64,000 bases of DNA from contig OX597843.1 in assembly GCA_951406725.2 (NCBI GenBank), positions 7,006,001-7,070,000 of the forward strand. The letters are read 5' to 3'. Below, piece by piece: positions 2,063 through 24,005 of this stretch (its first letter is position 1; the number at the start of each line of letters is the position of its first letter). The notes under the pieces are model-generated. The model was not told the origin of the DNA. It did no database searches and was given only the letters and a program-made list of their open reading frames with translations. The position numbers and the translations under genes are program-made. The DNA comes from Octopus vulgaris. Lineage: Eukaryota.

Positions 2063-2631
2063 ACCGGAATTCAATGTGAAAAGAATATATCGTTGGGTAA
2101 GTCTACACTAACACATATCGTTTTTATTGAATCGATCTATTGCATTTCAATCTGTTTTAGGATATCTTTTTTCTTCACAAATCTAAATAAACCGAGGGAC
2201 ATATTCAGAATGTTATTTACCTAAATGGACGTAATGGTTAAAATTGACGAAATATGTTAGAACATATGGAATTTTCTCAATAAAACCAAGAAAAAATGAT
2301 GTTTTATAAACATATTCTACCAGTATAGGAAGTTTAAAAGTGTTTGGTTAACTAGAAGATATCCTGTAGCATATACATATTTACGTAGGTATGTATGTAT
2401 ATAATTATATTATATATGTATATATTTATATTATATGTGTGGATGCAAAAGCATTCTGCTTTGAATAGAAGTGAAAGCAAAACTGGGTTGAAAAAAAAAA
2501 ACATTTTGAGAGAGAAAGTTAAAGAATGTTGTGGGCATAATGGTAGAATGTCTAAAAGCGACGAAGGACAGCCCTGAATTTTTCTTCTTTTTTTTAAACT
2601 TAAATAAGTTAATTTTACACAATTTTTTCAT

Positions 2632-2789
2632 GGCGACAGGTGGCTGGGATGTTAGCGCGTCGGACGAAATGCTTAGGTGTACTTCGTCCGACGTGACTGT
2701 CTGGGGGTTCGTTTCCCCGGATAGTCGCTCGGTCTGAGTACATCTAAGTATTTCTTTCGGCGCACTAATTGGCAAACCTGCCGCCTTTT
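2632..2789 (+). ncRNA. Candidate Pol III tRNA/SINE-headed long hairpin RNA, copy 1
   Basis: Starts GGCGACAGG; A-box-like TGGCTGGGATGTTAG; B-box-like GGTTCGTTTCC; ends ACCTGCCGCC-TTTT. The 5' and 3' halves are complementary over the full length, with mismatches mostly G-U on the + strand. TAAATA at about -30. Confidence 0.65.
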
Positions 2790-2837
2790 CAATCAGTTTT
2801 GCATGTGACCTAGTTATTTGACCCGGTTTATCGACCA

Positions 2838-2916
2838 CCTGTGCGCGCCCGCGCGCAGTCGCGTGTCCGCGCTAGCTGGGGCGCGTATGCAAATGAGTTG
2901 GTATGGCACATGCGCG
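2838..2916. promoter_or_regulatory. CpG-rich patch with a perfect octamer downstream of the hairpin gene
   Basis: TGCGCGCCCGCGCGCA foldback and ATGCAAAT at 2887-2894; repeated at 5665-5743. Confidence 0.4.
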
Positions 2917-4636
2917 AAGATAAGATATCTCATAAAGGAATTAATGGGTGTCCATCACTGTTATACGTATGTAATATAATTTTTCTATTGGTTTTAAGTT
3001 GATATTAATTAATACATATTTAACTTTTCATTCTTATTATTTAAGACCGATGATAAAAGTTCTTTCTATTTCTTACTAAAACCTTAAAAAATTGTTTCTA
3101 TCGTTCACACCTTTTATTTGGAATTTATTTCTCTTTCGAATGAAGACAATAAGCATTTTTATACAGTTTGAAGAATTCTATCTATATATAGGGTGGAAGA
3201 AAAGGGTTTCTCTTATCTTCAGAAATGTAAACAAATTCACGTGTGTACTTATACCGAAGGATCGTATTCTACACACTCAGAAAATGTTCTGTTTCCTGAC
3301 AAATACTCATTTTTCTGGACGTTATGAGGAAAGGAAACTGACGCGTGTTAATTAATGAATGTCTGCTTTCCACGGGGATGGTCACATTTGGCCATTAAAC
3401 ACACGCATTGTACATTTGATCTTCACTTCAGCTATATTGTAATTACTTTAATTTCTTTCTTCAAATTCCGTCGACTTTGCCTTTCATCCTTTTGGGGGTC
3501 GGTGGAATCAACAATTGCCCTCCCCACGAATTTCAGGCCTCTGCCTTTAGTAGAAAGGATTCTTAATTTAATTTGTTTTTTAATCATACGTGGGATAAAG
3601 AGTCGTTGAAGGGGTCACGAATGAATTGAAAACCACCGTAACGATAAAAGCTGAAGTGACCAGCAAATGTACGGTGCGTGGGTTTAATTAGCAAAATCTG
3701 GAACTTTTAGAGTTATTCCCCTGCAACCACATTCGATGACTGCTTTCTCCCCCCCCCCCCCGACATATATACGATTCAGCAGAATGCTTTTATACTTATA
3801 TATTATTCAAAGAAATTCCAACTCTGTTTTATTTATATTCTTTATAATATTAATGTAGAATATATAGCATAAGTATTGAGTATCAAATATTAAGGGACTA
3901 GTATACATTCTTGCATATAGGCCCCAGGTATTGACAGGAGTGTTTCAACTATTTATATATATATATGTATCCTATTCCATTCTTTGTTTCTATATCTAGG
4001 GCAGGTACCACTGGTATCATTACGAATAATGTTATCTAATTTCTTTCTAGCCCCCTTCCCCCCCTATATACCCGAACCCTATCGTTCTGATCATAGCCAG
4101 AGAACTGCATGTGGTGTATGAAGTTCTGTATATGTTTTTTCCATTTCATAGGGTTCATATAGTGGGGACACATTGTTCATTATTCTAATTAAGTCTGCTA
4201 TCAATATATTAATTTTCAGGCGTCCTGTCTACATATTCTTTGTAATTGTTTTGGATGTATGGTTCCAGGTTCAGTCCCACTATGTGGCACCTTAGGCGAT
4301 TGTCTTCTTTATTCATTATATTGGCCATAAAGGCATTATATAGAAGGGAAGCTGTGGGCTGGACATAGACAATGTTATATGATGATAAATAAGGGCAATA
4401 AGCGACCCCGCCGATCGCTGCTTACCTGAGAACATTGATCTTTTATAATTTCATTCATGGGGCTTCAAACCTCTTTCATTATTCAAAATGTGGCACTAAG
4501 CCTCTTTATTATTAACTTTCATGCCCGACCAGGCTCCTTGCCTCATTCGAGCACCAGGACGGTGCCAACTCAGGCAAGTGTCTTCTGCTTTACCCACGGG
4601 CTGACGAAAGTCTAGTGAGTAGAAAGAAGTTGATAT

Positions 4637-5329: not shown

Positions 5330-6562
5330 TTTTTGAGAGAAAAAGTTAAAGAATGTTGTGGGCATAATGGTAGAATGTCTAAAAGCGACGAAGGACAGCC
5401 CTGAATTTTTCTTCTTTTTTTTAAACTTAAATAAGTTAATTTTACACAATTTTTTCATGGCGACAGGTGGCTGGGATGTTAGCGCGTCGGACGAAATGCT
5501 TAGGTGTACTTCGTCCGACGTGACTGTCTGGGGGTTCGTTTCCCCGGATAGTCGCTCGGTCTGAGTACATCTAAGTATTTCTTTCGGCGCACTAATTGGC
5601 AAACCTGCCGCCTTTTCAATCAGTTTTGCATGTGACCTAGTTATTTGACCCGGTTTATCGACCACCTGTGCGCGCCCGCGCGCAGTCGCGTGTCCGCGCT
5701 AGCTGGGGCGCGTATGCAAATGAGTTGGTATGGCACATGCGCGAAGATAAGATATCTCATAAAGGAATTAATGGGTGTCCATCACTGTTATACGTATGTA
5801 ATATAATTTTTCTATTGGTTTTAAGTTGATATTAATTAATACATATTTAACTTTTCATTCTTATTATTTAAGACCGATGATAAAAGTTCTTTCTATTTCT
5901 TACTAAAACCTTAAAAAATTGTTTCTATCGTTCACACCTTTTATTTGGAATTTATTTCTCTTTCGAATGAAGACAATAAGCATTTTTATACAGTTTGAAG
6001 AATTCTATCTATATATAGGGTGGAAGAAAAGGGTTTCTCTTATCTTCAGAAATGTAAACAAATTCACGTGTGTACTTATACCGAAGGATCGTATTCTACA
6101 CACTCAGAAAATGTTCTGTTTCCTGACAAATACTCATTTTTCTGGACGTTATGAGGAAAGGAAACTGACGCGTGTTAATTAATGAATGTCTGCTTTCCAC
6201 GGGGATGGTCACATTTGGCCATTAAACACACGCATTGTACATTTGATCTTCACTTCAGCTATATTGTAATTACTTTAATTTCTTTCTTCAAATTCCGTCG
6301 ACTTTGCCTTCCATCCTTTTGGGGTCGGTGGAATCAACAATTGCCCTCCCCACGAATTTCAGGCCTTTAGTAGAAAGGATTCCTAATTTAATTTGTTTGT
6401 CAAAGTTTTTTAATCATACGTGGGATAAAGAGTCGTTGAAGGGGTCACGAATGAATTGAAAACCACCGTAACGATAGAAGCTGAAGTGACCAGCAAATGT
6501 CTGGTGCGTGGATTTAATTAGCAAAATCTGGAACTTTTAGAGTTATTCCCCTGCAACCACAT
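5330..6562 (+). repeat. Recent ~1.23-kb duplication, copy 2
   Basis: Near-identical to 2503-3732. Confidence 0.95.
5459..5616 (+). ncRNA. Candidate Pol III tRNA/SINE-headed long hairpin RNA, copy 2
   Basis: Identical by eye to 2632-2789. Confidence 0.65.
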
Positions 6563-6568
6563 CCGAAG

Positions 6569-6601
6569 ATTGGTTGTAATGACTAAGAGGAAGTGACGTC
6601 A
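6569..6601 (+). promoter_or_regulatory. CCAAT + CRE/ATF promoter-like module 1
   Basis: ATTGGTTG-N17-TGACGTCA; the same spacing recurs at 8711-8743. Confidence 0.5.
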
Positions 6602-12529: not shown

Positions 12530-13039
12530 TTACGACACGGGTCGGCCATTCTCGGCAGGCGTGCTCGACCGCGACCCCGCCGCAGAGTGTTGCGGAGAGT
12601 GTGCGCTGGCAGAGATGACGGAGTGCGTCGGACTGGGGGAAGAGGGTGGCTGGGTGGTGAGGAGGGTCGTTGAGGCGACGTCCGAGCTGGTCGACAGCGA
12701 CAGGGGCTGCTGTATGCCCGGCCCCGCCGTACATCTCTGTAGGTTCTGTGATTGCTGTTGCTGTGATGAGGCTGTGGAGGAGCAGCTGGACAGTGGAGAC
12801 GACGACGTGGAGGTGCGGAGGAGGAGGTTGGTGGTGGTGGAAGAGGATGATGAGAGCTGTGGTGCCGTGATCTGTGGTTTGCTTTCGCGACCATCACTGC
12901 TGCCCGTCGTCATTGGTGTCTTGCCACAGACATGATGGTGGTTCTCCCAGTCTTTGTGTTGGCAGAACGAACCGCAATATCGAGCGATGTTGCACCCGCT
13001 GCACGTCTCACTCGCTTTACGTCCGCAGTTCCAACAACT
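12530..13039 (-). CDS. CBFA2T1: CBFA2T/MTG8/ETO (nervy) terminal exon, MYND zinc finger (NHR4)
   Basis: [39 protein letters not shown] is the MTG-family MYND finger. Acceptor ttgcag at 13040-13045, phase 0; TAA at 12532-12530. Confidence 0.95.
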
Positions 13040-14263
13040 CTGCAAAGAATCAAGGGAAAGAAATATTAGAATCTCAATGAATTGGAATTTGGTCCAAAAA
13101 AAAAGCAGATATAACGGCTTTATGCTGAGTGCTTGTTTGTATGTACACCCTGTCGACATCTACACTCAAACAACATGTCCAATTAACTCTACACTCTTTG
13201 AGCTCCCTGTCTAGATATGTTATGTATAGGTTTATGTCTATCACTGTTTGAGTTGCATAATAGTGGTTTTATACTGTGAAATTTGATTTAATTTATATTC
13301 CTAACCACATAGTTCTCGGTTCAATCCCACTGTATGGCACCATAGGCAAGCGTCTTCCATTATAGCCTCTTAGACTGACCAAAAATAGTGTTTAAAAACA
13401 TCTTTATTTTTCTCAAGAAACATTTTACCCAACTTGTATACAGATGCGTTTATATATGGAAGTGTGATAGTGCTATGTGTGTATGTCTGTACATACACAT
13501 ATACATGCATACATGCATACATGCATACTTACATACATATATACACACACACATATATGCATACACTTACATCCATATATGTATGCTGGCAGACATATAT
13601 ACATGCATTTATACACACACACATGTGTGTGTCTGTATATATATACATACATATGCTCACATGCATACATACACACACACACACTTACATCCATATATGT
13701 ATGTATGTATTGACATACGCAATTAGCACTATCACACTTCCATATATAAACGCATTTGTATACAAGTTGGGTAAAATGTTTTTAAAACACAATTTTTAGT
13801 GTCAAGGAAAACTACTCTTATCCCAACTACAAGCGTTTTAATAAGAGACACAAAAGTCTGAGACATTTCAGTTTAAGATGGAATTTAATAAGAAATTATA
13901 TTGTGTTGTCCAGGAAGTTCATGCCGATTTATAGTAGCTTACCTTTCGACTTATTTTAGAACATAGCTGCGTCCCTAAAATGGGATTTGACTCCACCTCC
14001 GTATAGGCTATCTTTTGTCGGGGGGGGGGGGGGATATACTTTTAACGTTCCACTGGCACAAGTGCCGATCAGACGATACTATCATCGGCCACGTCAGCGA
14101 TTCTGATTTGATTTGCCTCGACAGGTCTTATGTATCGAAACGTAGAGTAGATGAAACCATGGCGACTGAAGAAGGGTTTTTTTCCTTGTGTTATTTGTCC
14201 TGTACTCTATTTTTGTTTAAGAAAAATGTCCAGTACTCATATATACAGGGTCAGGCAAAATGA

Positions 14264-19430: not shown

Positions 19431-22080
19431 AGAGTGGAACCAAACAGCGCACCCCAGGTCCTCTTGTCATACTCAAACTCGGTGTGTGACACACTAATTG
19501 TACATATTAGGCAACTTGATGTAGTTGTGTGTGCTACAGATGCCATGTGGGCAAGTTCGAAGACTGCCTTATAAAAATAGAAGAAATTCTAAACACATAG
19601 GTGTGCTTCTTATGGGAGACTTCAATCTGCCCAATGTCAGATGGCCCGAGGGCCTTTCTCTCCCAGGAATGACAAGATGTGAACGAGGTCCCTCATCAAC
19701 ACCCTGTACATGGAGCAGGTAACACACTGGATCTCTGCTTCACAAATGACATGGATCTCATCCATAATGTGAAAGTGACACCGACACTACTCTCGGATCA
19801 CAACATGATAGAGCTGACCATGTACGGGCCAAAGAGAGCACGGACATGCAGCCTACAAGAAACCCTCAAAATCTTTCCAGCTTGAACTACCATAAGGCAA
19901 ACTGGAAACAAATTGAGAAAGAGATCCTCAAACAAAACTTGCCTTGAATGTCTCTCCTCGCCAGACATCGACGTGAAACTTCAACAATTCATGTCTGTAA
20001 TGCAAGCCATATGCTACAAATGTGTCCCAGAGAGAAAGGCCACTGTACACAAGAACAAAATCCCCAGAGAGAGGAAAATTTTAATGAGACGGCGTACGAA
20101 ATTTTCAAATCGCCTAAACAAACAGATTGAAAGCAGTGAAACGTCCCGCCTAAAAATAAAACTGTTGGAAATCGAAAAATGTCTGCAACTCTCCCATGAA
20201 AAAGAAAGAGCAGACAAAGAAGCCTGGGCTATAGAAAACATAAAATCTAACCCCCAGAGCTTTCTACAGGTATGCCAAAGAAACAGCTACAGTGCACTGT
20301 AGAATAGGGCCACTCCTTGAAAAGGATGGCACACTTACAGGAAAACCAATGAGGGTAAGTGAAATACTGAATGAGCAATTCAAGAATGTTTTCACTCCAC
20401 CCCTTGGGCATCACCAATCCAACTGACTTTTTTACCACTGCAGATATAAAATCAGAGGCGGCGACGATAGATTACAACGATGTAACCAAGGCTATAGATG
20501 AAATGAAAACAGACTCAGCTACTGGCCCCGATGGATTCCCGGCAATCCTCCTAAAAGCATGTAAGAGAGTCCTAGCAAGACCACTGCAGTTCCTCTTTCA
20601 GAGCTTCCTTGCAGCTGGCAAACTTCCAGAAAACTGAAGGAAGGTAAAATGATGCCCCATTCATAAAGGAGGTAGCAGAGCGGAAGCCAAGAACTATAGA
20701 CCTATCTCTCTGACCTCACACATCAGCAAGGTCATGGAACGAATAGTCAGAAGGAAGCTGATCACCTTCCTTGAAGAGAATGACTTGCTGCCCGACACCC
20801 AACATGGTTTCCGACCAGGGAGAAGCTGTTTAACTCAGCTCCTACAACACTATGACTGGGTGCTGAAACGGCTGCTCAACCACTCAAATGTGGAAGTGAT
20901 ATATCTCGCCTTTGATAAAGTCGATCATGGAATGATATGTCACAAACTGCGTGATCTCAACATAGTTGGAAAACTGGGAGAATGGCTTCATGACTTTCTG
21001 AAGGATAGAAGTCAGGTGGTAGTAGCCAATGGGGCCACCTCCATTAACACACAAATAGTGAGCGGTGTTCCGCAGGGCACTGTTCTGGGACCACTACTGT
21101 TCATAATGGCCCAGAGAGCCACGATCACAGGCAATACAGAAACCTGAGGACACTAAACACCTGCAATGTGAGCTGGACGAAATATACAAGTGGGCTGAAA
21201 AGAATAGCATGCAGTTCAATGCTGGAAAGTTTCAAGCTTTATACTATCAGCATGCAAAACTGAATGCAATACCCAATGAATACACTGGACCCGGAGGGAT
21301 TGCACAATCAGTGCGTGACCTTGGTATTCACATGAGTGATGACGCGACCTTTCATGTACATGTTGCTAAACTGACAATGAAATGTAGACGGCTGGCTGGA
21401 TGGATTCTTAGAACCTTGAGAACAAGAAACCATGATGGTCCTCTGGAAGACACTTGTCCTAAGCCACTTTGACTATTGCTCTCAGCTATGGTCACCATCC
21501 AGTGTCAAGTTGATCACAGAACTTGAGGCGATCCAACGAAGCTACACAAAGAAGATAGCCTCTATGCAGAATGTAAGCTACTGGGAAAGACTCAAGAGAT
21601 TAAAATTATATTCCCTGGAGCGTAGGCGGGAAAGATATGCCATAATATACATCTGGAAGATCCTGGAGGGAAGTGTCCTGAACTTTGGCATCGAGAGTTA
21701 CGCAAATGCCAGAACTGGGCGCCACTGCGTGGTGCCTAGGACTCCAAACCTGCCATCAAGATGTAGGACAAGATTCTGTGATAGCCTGGGCTTCCGAGGC
21801 CCACAGCTCTTCAATATCCTCCCGAAGAACCTGAGAGACCTGCATGGGGTGGATACAGATGTCTTTAAAATGAAGCTGGATCTCTTCCTGTCAGGTGTCC
21901 CAGATGAACCAACTTCACGGCAGGAGGGGCAGATGAGGGCAGCTGCATCGAACTCTCTCATGCACCAAATAGCAGTTGCTAGAAAGCCTCCATGAAGTGA
22001 AACCAAGTAGCAACACCAAATGGCGGTGCCCCAGCATGGCCACAGCTCATAAACTGAAACTAGAATCAATCAATCAATCA
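19430..22080 (+). mobile_element. CR1-like LINE ORF2 (endonuclease + RT), frameshifted, with (ATCA)n tail
   Basis: MGDFNLP, GNTLDL, SDHN, GPDGFP, YRPISLTS, QHGFR, GVPQGTVLGPLLF, YSLERRRERY. Confidence 0.95.
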
Positions 22081-22123
22081 TATATATTTATATATATTAT
22101 TTATATATATATATATTTTATAT

Positions 22124-22191
<68 letters not shown>

Positions 22192-22236
22192 ATAAATATA
22201 TTATATATATTTTATATTATTTATATATATATTATA
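22081..22236. repeat. AT-only spacer between the inverted LINE copies
   Basis: Degenerate TA repeat. Confidence 0.9.
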
Positions 22237-24005
22237 TGATTGATTGATTGATTCCAGTTTCAGCTTATGAGCTGGGGCACCGCCATTTGGTGTTACTTCA
22301 TGGAGGCTTTCTAGCAACTGCTATTTGGTGCATGAGAGAGTTCGATGCAGCTGCCGTGAGTTGGTTCATCTGGGACACCTGACAGGAAGAGATCCAGCTC
22401 CATTTTAAAGACATCTGTATCCACCCCATGCAGGTCTCTCAGGTTCATCGGGAGGATATTGAAGAGCTGTGGGCCTCGGAAGCCCAGGCTATCACAGAAT
22501 CTTGTCCTACATCTTGATGGCAAGTTTGGAGTCCTAGGCACCACGCAGTGGCACCCCAGTTCTGGCGTTTGCGTAACTCTCGATGCCAAAGTTCAGGACA
22601 CTTCCCTCAGGATCTTCCAGATGTATATTATGGCATATCTTTCCCGCCTACGCTCCAGGGAATATAATTTTAATCTCTTGAGTCTTTCCCAGTAGCTTAC
22701 ATTCTGCATAGAGGCTATCTTCTTCGTGTAGCTTCGTTGGATCGCCTCAAGTTCTGTGATCAACTTGACACTGGATGGTGACCATAGCTGAGAGCAATAG
22801 TCAAAGTGACTTAGGACAAGTGTCTTCCAGAGGACCATCATGGTTTCATGTTCTCTTGTTCTAAAAGAATCCAGCCAGCCAGCCGTCTGCATTTCACTGT
22901 CAGTTTAGCAACATGTACATGAAAGGTCGCGTCATCACTCATGTGAATACCCAGGTCACGCACTGATTGTGCCTCTGGGATTGCAATCCCTCCGGGTCCA
23001 GTGTATTCCTTGGGTATTCAGTTTTGCATGCTGATAGTATAAAGCTTGAAACTTTTCAGCATTGAACTGCATGCTATTCGTTTCAGCCACTTGTATATTT
23101 CGTCCAGCTCATATTGCAGGTGCCTAGTGTCTTCAGGGTTCTGTATTGCCTGTGCATAACTTGTGATCGTGGCTCTCCGCGTGGCTGAGGGCATGTCTGA
23201 GAGGGCCATTATGAACAGTAGTGGTCCCAAAACAGTGCCCTGTGGAACACCGCTCACTATTTGCGTGCTAATGGAAGTGGCCCCATTGGCTACTACCACC
23301 TGACTTCTATTCTTCAGAAAGTCGTGAAGCCGTTTTCCAACTATGCCAAGATCACGCAGTTTGTGATATCATTCCATGATCGACTTTATCGAAGGCCTTT
23401 GCGAAGTCGAGATATATCACTTCCGTGGTTGAGCAGTTGTTTCAGCACCCAGTCATAGTGCTGCAGGAGCTGAGTTAAGCAGCTTCTTCCTGGTCGGAAA
23501 CCATGTTGGGTGTCAGGCAGCAAGTCATTTTCTTCAAGGAAGGTGATTAGTTTCCTTCTGACTATTCGTTCCATGACCTTGCTGATGTGTGAGGTCAGAG
23601 AGATAGGTCTGTAGTTCTTGGCCTCCGCTCTGCTACCTCCTTTATGAATAGGGCATATTTTACCTTCCTTCAGTTTTCTTGGAAGTTTGCCAGCTGCAAG
23701 GAAGCTCTGAAAGAGGAACTGCAGTGGTCTTGCTAAGACTCTCTTACATACTTTTAGGAGGATTGCCGGGAATCCATCGGGGCCAATAGCTGAGTCTATT
23801 TTCATTTCATCTATAGCCTTTATTACATCGTCTTCCTTTATATCGATGTAATTTAACGTCGCCGCCTCTGATTCTATATCTGCAGTGGTAAAAAAGTCAG
23901 TTGGATTGCTGATTTGGAAATGCCCAAGGGGTGGAGTGAAAACACTCTTGAATTGTTCATTCAGTATTTCACTTACCCTCATTGGTTTTCCTGTGAGTGT
24001 GCAAT
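22237..24005 (-). mobile_element. CR1-like LINE, 5' truncated, inverted copy of ~20330-22080
   Basis: Same RT motifs on the minus strand; (TGAT)n tail at 22237-22252. Confidence 0.95.

Follow-up and report, generated by a model that had tools for sequence, protein, structure and literature searches.

A stretch of 64,000 nucleotides of the Octopus vulgaris genome (contig OX597843.1, designated C30 below), which we call the window, carries at positions 2632..2789 (+) a long hairpin that is likely a Pol III gene for a rod RNA of about 160 nt. Such an RNA would owe its function to its shape, serving dsRNA-binding proteins as ligand or decoy. We put the probability of this reading at roughly one half.

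The hairpin unit and its copies

The preliminary description of this DNA set the limits of the unit at G2632 and TTTT. Both limits are right, the T-run being at 2786-2789. The RNA predicted for this copy is 158 nt long, with about 65 pairs and a 3' UUUU overhang. The two halves had been said to pair end to end, and this is borne out by the fold of the + strand, a single end-to-end rod of -99.1 kcal/mol (z -11.2; 0 of 200 shuffles were as good), against -70.3 kcal/mol for the - strand of the same unit. The longest pure Watson-Crick runs between G-U or mismatch positions do not exceed 6-9 bp.

An excess of G-U pairs on the + strand (about 11 vs 2) had also been claimed. It holds for the predicted folds of the window copy (12 on the + strand vs 3 on the - strand) and for the related type B copies described below, where a symmetric, strand-neutral arm-to-arm alignment gives 12-14 G-U against 1 A-C (p=0.001-0.003). 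The same count for the window copy, 10 G-U against 3 A-C, is not significant alone (p=0.09). An origin of the G-U pairs by ADAR action alone is ruled out, because C>T and A>G changes both contribute.

ARAGORN and Rfam at the gathering score gave no hits in the window, which agrees with the earlier statement that the unit matches no named RNA family. In particular, there was no gathering-score match to the Rfam tRNA, vault, Y, SRP or miRNA families. Rfam at E up to 10 produced only generic sub-threshold hairpin matches, none of them to vault or Y RNA, and a Y-RNA or vault-like reading, prompted by the terminal stem, is left without Rfam support.

The unit had been described as a duplicated gene. 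A second, identical copy does lie at 5459..5616 (+), within a tandem duplicate of 1.25 kb (2504-3745 vs 5331-6575, 97.8% identity, one hairpin in each part), but the family is larger than one duplicate. The window type, type A, has four copies, all on C30. Type B has eight copies, also all on C30 and about 80% identical to type A; one of them is 3'-truncated. An older type C was reached by searching with the upstream flank of the hairpin and has at least seven copies on six contigs (two on C21 and the others on C23, C26, C27, C28 and C30), plus two stubs. These counts are lower bounds, as 40 of 102, 9 of 9 and 40 of 2386 candidates were scored and remote members may be missed. A pattern match at C30:5859399 that looked like one more copy proved spurious.

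The copies have about 1-1.5 kb of flank in common. The flanks consist of nested old repeats with ragged ends, and discrete element ends are absent. Such flanks point to segmental duplication rather than retroposition as the probable way of spread. A MITE or SINE subfamily of high copy number, for which the preliminary description would expect hundreds of dispersed copies, is ruled out: about 19 copies were found, their flanks are common to them, and no element-bounded insertions were seen. The hairpin stretch or a part of it is present in 8 of 24 run entries, under four organism labels, which says nothing about expression; none of the runs listed is recorded as RNA. A deep run of another organism holds both L002/L003-like and L004-like forms; these forms thus predate the split from that organism.

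Several other features were observed on the same contig. At 4.55-4.60 Mb and 6.13-6.18 Mb of C30 there are duplicated inverted clusters of C2H2 zinc-finger genes, several with frame changes, and each cluster carries an inward-facing pair of identical type B hairpins. Within the window, an exon with a zf-MYND domain (Pfam) at 12533-13159 (-) presumably resembles the last exon of a nervy/CBFA2T-type gene, and a 3.7-kb self-inverted repeat with 88% identity at 20326-24005 surrounds LINE-like reading frames.

Origin and putative promoter

Both arms of the hairpin correspond to the head of a tRNA-type SINE, according to arm comparisons and a tree. The 5' arm (2632..2707, +) is the sense head; the 3' arm (2712..2785, -) is an antisense head and the faster-changing of the two. 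The similarity of the 5' arm to a SINE head at 48766-48690, noticed in the preliminary description, is real, but the 3' arm, too, is a SINE head. The unit had been said to lack the SINE body, and indeed it contains neither body nor tail.

The build of type C is the most informative in regard to origin. It comprises a whole SINE head (+1 to about +92, with the B box intact), a loop of 4 nt, and a complete antisense SINE head. The two heads meet at the SINE's own GTCGAC site, and a second antisense SINE comes after the hairpin. A remnant of this complete antisense SINE, which is found 3' of the hairpin in type C and in copy L004, lies at 2807..2836 (-) of the window. The TTTT run is the complement of the A-run preceding the antisense head; AAAA stands there in only 1 of 36 SINE copies sampled.

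The tree was built from 63 arm and SINE rows over 77 columns, and its supports are rough; short rows, the 5' arm of C_L088 and the 3' arm of B12 were excluded. The 5' arms all fall together within the SINEs (97/97), and the 3' arms all fall into a second group (100/99). Types A and B together make one clade in each arm group (98/94 and 100/99), on long branches. Because type C is made of SINE heads and the 5' arms nest within the diversity of the SINEs, we infer that the hairpin was built from SINE heads and not the SINE from the hairpin. The suggestion that the hairpin is the source gene of the SINE head is thus not supported.

The sequences further indicate that A and B descend from type C as a common A+B lineage. 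Relative to type C, each of their arms is missing 13 bases (12-15 in A) that pair with those missing from the other arm; the B box of the SINE is gone with them. At the apex, most C copies have GCGA, which is a GNRA loop, and B copies have UUCG. GNRA and UUCG are extra-stable RNA loops. The new apex makes a B-box-like element at +75 to +80, the lost SINE box having been at +74. It is less economical, though possible, to suppose a single deletion after which the old B box was altered where it stood; a box is kept either way.

In the window copy, this B-box-like element occupies 2706..2716 (+), in the apical loop. The matrix used for scoring came from 26 distinct tRNA-like genes of this genome, 6 of which have T at position 58 and may be pseudogenes. 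On this matrix the element scores 15.0 bits in type A and 10.4 in type B, compared with 8.2 for the lost SINE box and 11-19 for the tRNAs. The A-box position at 2641..2651 (+), inherited from the SINE, is degenerate and is absent from the top-scoring sites: scores range from -4.2 (A4) to 2.5 (B), with the window copy lower still, against 6-20 for tRNAs on a matrix that is narrow and on which the SINE's own A box likewise scores poorly. Of the two elements named in the preliminary description, the B-box-like one has T in place of the tRNA A58, and the A-box-like one is poor. Six tRNA-Lys-like copies (L126, L128-L132) also have T58 in the T loop; they are possibly a tRNA-derived repeat family or pseudogenes.

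A predicted Pol III terminator, the T4 at 2786..2789 (+), derives from the A-run 5' of the antisense SINE head and follows right after the last paired base. T4 stands directly after the stem in 10 of the 10 A/B copies listed. A second T4 (2797..2800, +, in the window copy) is found 11-20 nt past the first in the same 10 of 10, where C copies have T3. Type B also has an internal T4 at +126. The first T5 downstream (+349; 2980..2984, +) is a candidate end of read-through transcripts.

Upstream, a TATA-like TTAAATA at about -32 (2600..2606, +) is present at 11 of 11 A/B loci listed. It carries little weight in an AT-rich flank, and it stays weak because no fixed upstream TATA was evident by eye at 30 octopus tRNA loci. 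At U6 loci the picture is different: 7 of 15 have a TATGC(A/T)AAT-type element near -77 together with a TATA near -30. No such U6-type PSE element was found within 90 nt upstream at any of 11 hairpin loci, which rules out a type 3 (U6-like) Pol III promoter. The promoter, if any, would therefore be internal and imperfect.

The candidate PSE of U6 (L041, L043, L048-L052; about -77 to -57 from the U6 +1) separates likely real U6 genes from retrocopies, and five U6 variant genes stand in tandem on C1 near 139.42 Mb. The first 12 letters of the PSE-like element of the tandem U6 genes, TATGCAAATGAG, recur at 2886-2897 (+) of the window and downstream of L003 and L011. The window site is about 100 nt past the hairpin, in a GC-rich MITE-like remnant, and no snRNA-like gene was seen after it by eye.

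Contigs from four runs were considered, two of which we guessed to be RNA, strand unrecorded. In these two, type A contigs at 2675-2926 and 2724-2975 (depth 3-4) cross T4 and end before the T5 at 2980. A type B contig of 492 nt (depth 12.7), which also belongs to a run guessed to be RNA, starts precisely at +1 of a B10/B11-type copy, a weak hint; if it comes from B11, its end falls about 10 nt short of an A7 run, and no T5 intervenes. Contigs of the runs guessed to be RNA extend 137-330 nt beyond TTTT and have no one shared end. The same two runs do not cover 2440-2625 or 2998-3183, which proves nothing by itself. Since the contigs cross T4 and type B has an internal T4, either T4 is leaky or the real RNA is longer. 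The contig ends fit leaky termination with only the long forms captured; DNA carry-over or Pol II transcription would fit equally. Downstream of type B (L005-L010) there is a conserved block of about 200 nt with GGAAGTGACGTCA and GAAACTGAAAC, possibly a Pol II regulatory element or a part of a read-through RNA; we take GGAAGTGACGTCA to be ETS plus CRE-like motifs.

Selection on pairing and alternative explanations

The type C consensus was used as the reference, in which role it stands in for the true ancestor, and the C copies were used as the control. For pair-change counts and simulations, the registers of type A rows were moved by hand and those of B rows were not moved. After 25-36 substitutions relative to the C consensus, 64 of 71 pairs are kept in A2, 61 of 71 in A4, and 66 of 74 in both B5 and B11. 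The neutral expectation for these copies is 46-56 pairs (p<=0.001 in all 8 runs of 4000 simulations, with two mutation models). In the same simulations four C copies fit the neutral model (p 0.33-0.71).

Changes at Watson-Crick pairs preserve pairing in 9 of 11 cases in B5 (p 0.005) and in 12 of 14 in B10 (p 0.001), against 10 of 33 distinct events in C (Fisher test). The corresponding figure for A2 and A4 is 11 of 18 (p 0.04). Compensatory changes are present among the paralogues: there are seven two-sided pair changes in A/B and none in C, and 6 of 48 pairs have changed on both sides, a value reached in 2 of 500 shuffles on rows that are related. Stepwise paths via G-U intermediates are visible among sister copies.

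The contrast between core and flank depends on the type. Variable columns in type B number 8 of 164 in the core and 27 of 158 in the upstream flank (p 5e-4), though the core is CpG-rich, and four B copies have identical cores with 1-12% divergence upstream. The type A core is no less variable than its upstream flank (13 of 158 vs 16 of 181 columns). Among the type C copies C85, C79 and C86, the core diverges by 8-9% and the upstream flank by 6-11%; these are pairwise values, since non-homologous sequence inflates the flank column counts of type C and, in one comparison other than that given above, of type B, and such counts were not used. One-sided deletions occur in at least 4 of the 7 C copies, and full-length A/B copies have none of that kind. 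Contig X4 from another organism (depth 6) has a deletion of 8 nt in the apical stem.

Pairs kept beyond the neutral expectation in A and B, neutral decay in C, and G-U pairs favouring the + strand together argue that the hairpin structure is under selection as RNA. Divergence among A2, A4 and B is greatest in their terminal 22 nt, where pairing is rebuilt, which suggests that shape rather than a fixed guide is what is kept; the central 5' arm is more conserved.

Much of this pattern might also arise from an inverted SINE pair carried in segmental duplications, with gene conversion between arms and copies and strand-biased mutation. The copies do travel with flanks of nested repeats, the upstream flanks look mosaic, and the 200 nt downstream of type B are well conserved too. 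The +1, the paired ends and TTTT come free with the origin, and the unusually long A/B branches could reflect a local mutational process. Two-sided changes and identical cores could likewise come from gene conversion, but G-U pairs that last on one strand could not: conversion between the arms would erase them, yet 11-13 persist in A/B copies against 1-2 A-C mismatches. The C copies, which are the same kind of palindrome in the same kind of flanks, decay neutrally, and the B-box-like element is back at nearly the same place. Hence we consider a purely neutral history unlikely. The one-strand G-U pairs bear as well on a role at the level of DNA, either as a TFIIIC-binding boundary or as a cruciform seeding duplication. 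Such a role would agree with the kept B-box-like site and with the frequent duplication of the locus, but G-U pairs help only RNA, being A-C mismatches on the other strand, and it seems highly improbable. The preliminary description had itself proposed a natural shRNA that makes anti-SINE small RNAs. The 3' arm is indeed antisense to the head of an abundant SINE, and with the SINE consensus the B arms still form a duplex of about -90 kcal/mol. However, even the best antisense 21-mer mismatches the SINE consensus at 6-7 positions in the conserved A and B copies, and at 1 in the decaying C, so the match to the SINE has not been maintained by selection. Endo-siRNA machinery is moreover reported to be lost in Trochozoa (PMC11114477), and the pathway is described as not evident in molluscs (PMC12479628). 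With the antisense arm drifted and the machinery reportedly missing, anti-SINE silencing is disfavoured and very unlikely.

Two further explanations accept an RNA product of another kind. The rod could be the precursor of a microRNA-like guide, either cut from the base by Dicer-1 independently of Drosha, as for mivaRNA and miR-snaR, or trimmed near its apex by Drosha, with the guide as the functional product. Imperfect, G-U-rich stems are typical of pre-miRNAs, and the paired 5' end with a 3' oligo-U overhang resembles both the terminal stem of VA RNA that is cut by Dicer (PMC7589676) and the ends of snaR-A, the source of miR-snaR (PMC8127991). On the other hand, the terminal 22 nt and the would-be seeds differ among A2/A3, A4 and B, and the best Rfam miRNA match reaches 31 bits vs a gathering score of 104. 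The arm motifs are also absent from the supplements searched (PMC9699675, PMC11701709), in which no miRNA sequence list was noticed. A guide precursor is in our opinion an improbable reading. Alternatively, the hairpin may work inside Pol II transcripts, as an inverted-SINE duplex in the 3' UTR of C2H2 zinc-finger genes (editing, retention, Staufen) or as a short Pol II RNA from a TATA-like/TCAGT start. Three identical B copies sit 0.75-1.5 kb 3' of C2H2 zinc-finger exons on the same strand, the contigs run beyond the T runs, and B copies have TCAGT just before +1, which we take to resemble the invertebrate initiator consensus. The UTR placement fits three copies only: the other copies scanned have no same-strand upstream zinc-finger motif within about 10-15 kb on each side, nor is there one near the window copies, which lie at a distance of 7-10 kb from the nearest coding exon found and antisense to it. 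A UTR element, besides, needs neither a B box nor a T-run. We consider a Pol II role quite unlikely.

Proposed function and known systems

The view of the preliminary description that this is a + strand rod RNA gene of Pol III type, maintained by selection, survives in most respects: pairing is kept in A and B, the unit is built of SINE heads, and the loop has a B-box-like element, while both boxes depart from the tRNA consensus. A/B copies keep shape, length, paired ends, tail and B box, and their terminal sequence and SINE match drift. In our preferred reading, TFIIIC would use the B box of the loop with the weak A box and perhaps the TATA-like element at -32, and Pol III would start at G+1 and stop leakily at the pair of T4 runs. 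The paired 5' end with the UUUU overhang would suit export by Exportin-5. The G-U-studded rod would bind and buffer dsRBD proteins of the ADAR, Dicer-1/TRBP and NF90/Staufen types, and any ends cut by Dicer would be a by-product. All steps after transcription are modelled on snaR and VA RNA. The ADAR/Dicer decoy proposed in the preliminary description comes near to this reading and may hold.

A bolder version of this reading, which we offer tentatively, is that octopuses have evolved VA-like decoy RNAs of their own from junk DNA, a Pol III gene family whose host-encoded rod would tune ADAR editing or the flux through Dicer and Exportin-5. It is equally tentative, as a part of the same version, that the genome keeps each stage of the birth of these genes: the SINE, the SINE palindrome, dead copies, the loss of the promoter and its re-invention, and two live subfamilies that have diverged. 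To our knowledge, octopuses are among the animals with the heaviest known RNA recoding. A dedicated dsRNA rod in coleoid cephalopods could regulate ADAR or Dicer.

A literature search, with poor coverage of subscription journals and with MirGeneDB sequences outside its scope, found no description of the hairpin. In particular, there is none in text passages or supplements of PMC9699675 and PMC4758252 or in the supplement of PMC11701709. The hairpin may have been annotated as a microRNA before.

BC1 and BC200 are SINE-exapted Pol III RNA genes of mammals. Such genes are known mainly from mammals. Another case is snaR (PMC3045588). If our reading is true, the octopus adds a case among invertebrates, one that is built differently and whose dead sister copies supply a neutral control of its own. 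The de novo birth of a structured RNA gene would then be directly testable, including a promoter element regained in a hairpin loop.

Vault RNA, Y RNA and BC1/BC200 are likewise small RNAs made by Pol III, with ends that pair and a tail of U; BC1 and BC200 are SINE-related. The octopus hairpin differs from vault and Y RNAs in having no Rfam match to them even at E up to 10, and from the BC RNAs in having no A-rich domain. Drosophila hpRNAs and microRNA precursors from head-to-head transposable elements are long, imperfect, G-U-rich hairpins that arose by inverted duplication and are Pol II transcripts. The octopus hairpin is similar to them in its length, imperfect G-U-rich pairing and inverted duplication. 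However, hpRNAs need Dicer-2/Ago2, reportedly missing in molluscs, and the octopus hairpin shows no evident conserved guide. Named tRNA-derived SINEs of octopus are OK, OR1 and OR2. Both arms of the hairpin are heads of the common octopus SINE, from which the unit differs in having no body or tail, in its low number of copies, and in flanks that its copies share, in place of new sites of insertion. PMC4758252 cites OR2 and Ohshima and Okada 1994.

Adenovirus VA RNA is about 160 nt long, is transcribed by Pol III from an internal promoter, and has paired ends and an oligo-U tail; it has a second downstream terminator with read-through and engages Exportin-5 and Dicer (PMC7589676). The octopus hairpin, whose transcription is predicted, resembles it in length, paired ends, oligo-U tail and a second downstream T-run. 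VA RNA is viral, has a branched central domain and targets PKR, whereas the octopus hairpin is host-encoded, unbranched and SINE-born.

The closest comparison is with primate snaR, a SINE-derived, highly structured, oligo-U-ended RNA with an internal Pol III promoter (PMC3045588). The snaR genes were dispersed through segmental duplication and underwent rapid lineage-specific change via deletions and substitutions from traceable intermediates (PMC3045588); snaR-A binds the dsRNA protein NF90 and yields a Dicer product, miR-snaR (PMC8127991). Membership of the snaR family, which descends from Alu/FLAM-C, is ruled out by the descent of the hairpin from an octopus tRNA-type SINE, and no homology is expected. 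Judging by SINE origin, structure and spread by segmental duplication, the hairpin seems rather to work like snaR in its origin and spread. The octopus case is new in its starting SINE and in its build: snaR goes back to a single Alu left monomer (7SL type, about 117 nt), and the octopus hairpin to two inverted tRNA-SINE heads that form one rod of 65 pairs, with the putative promoter box in its terminal loop.
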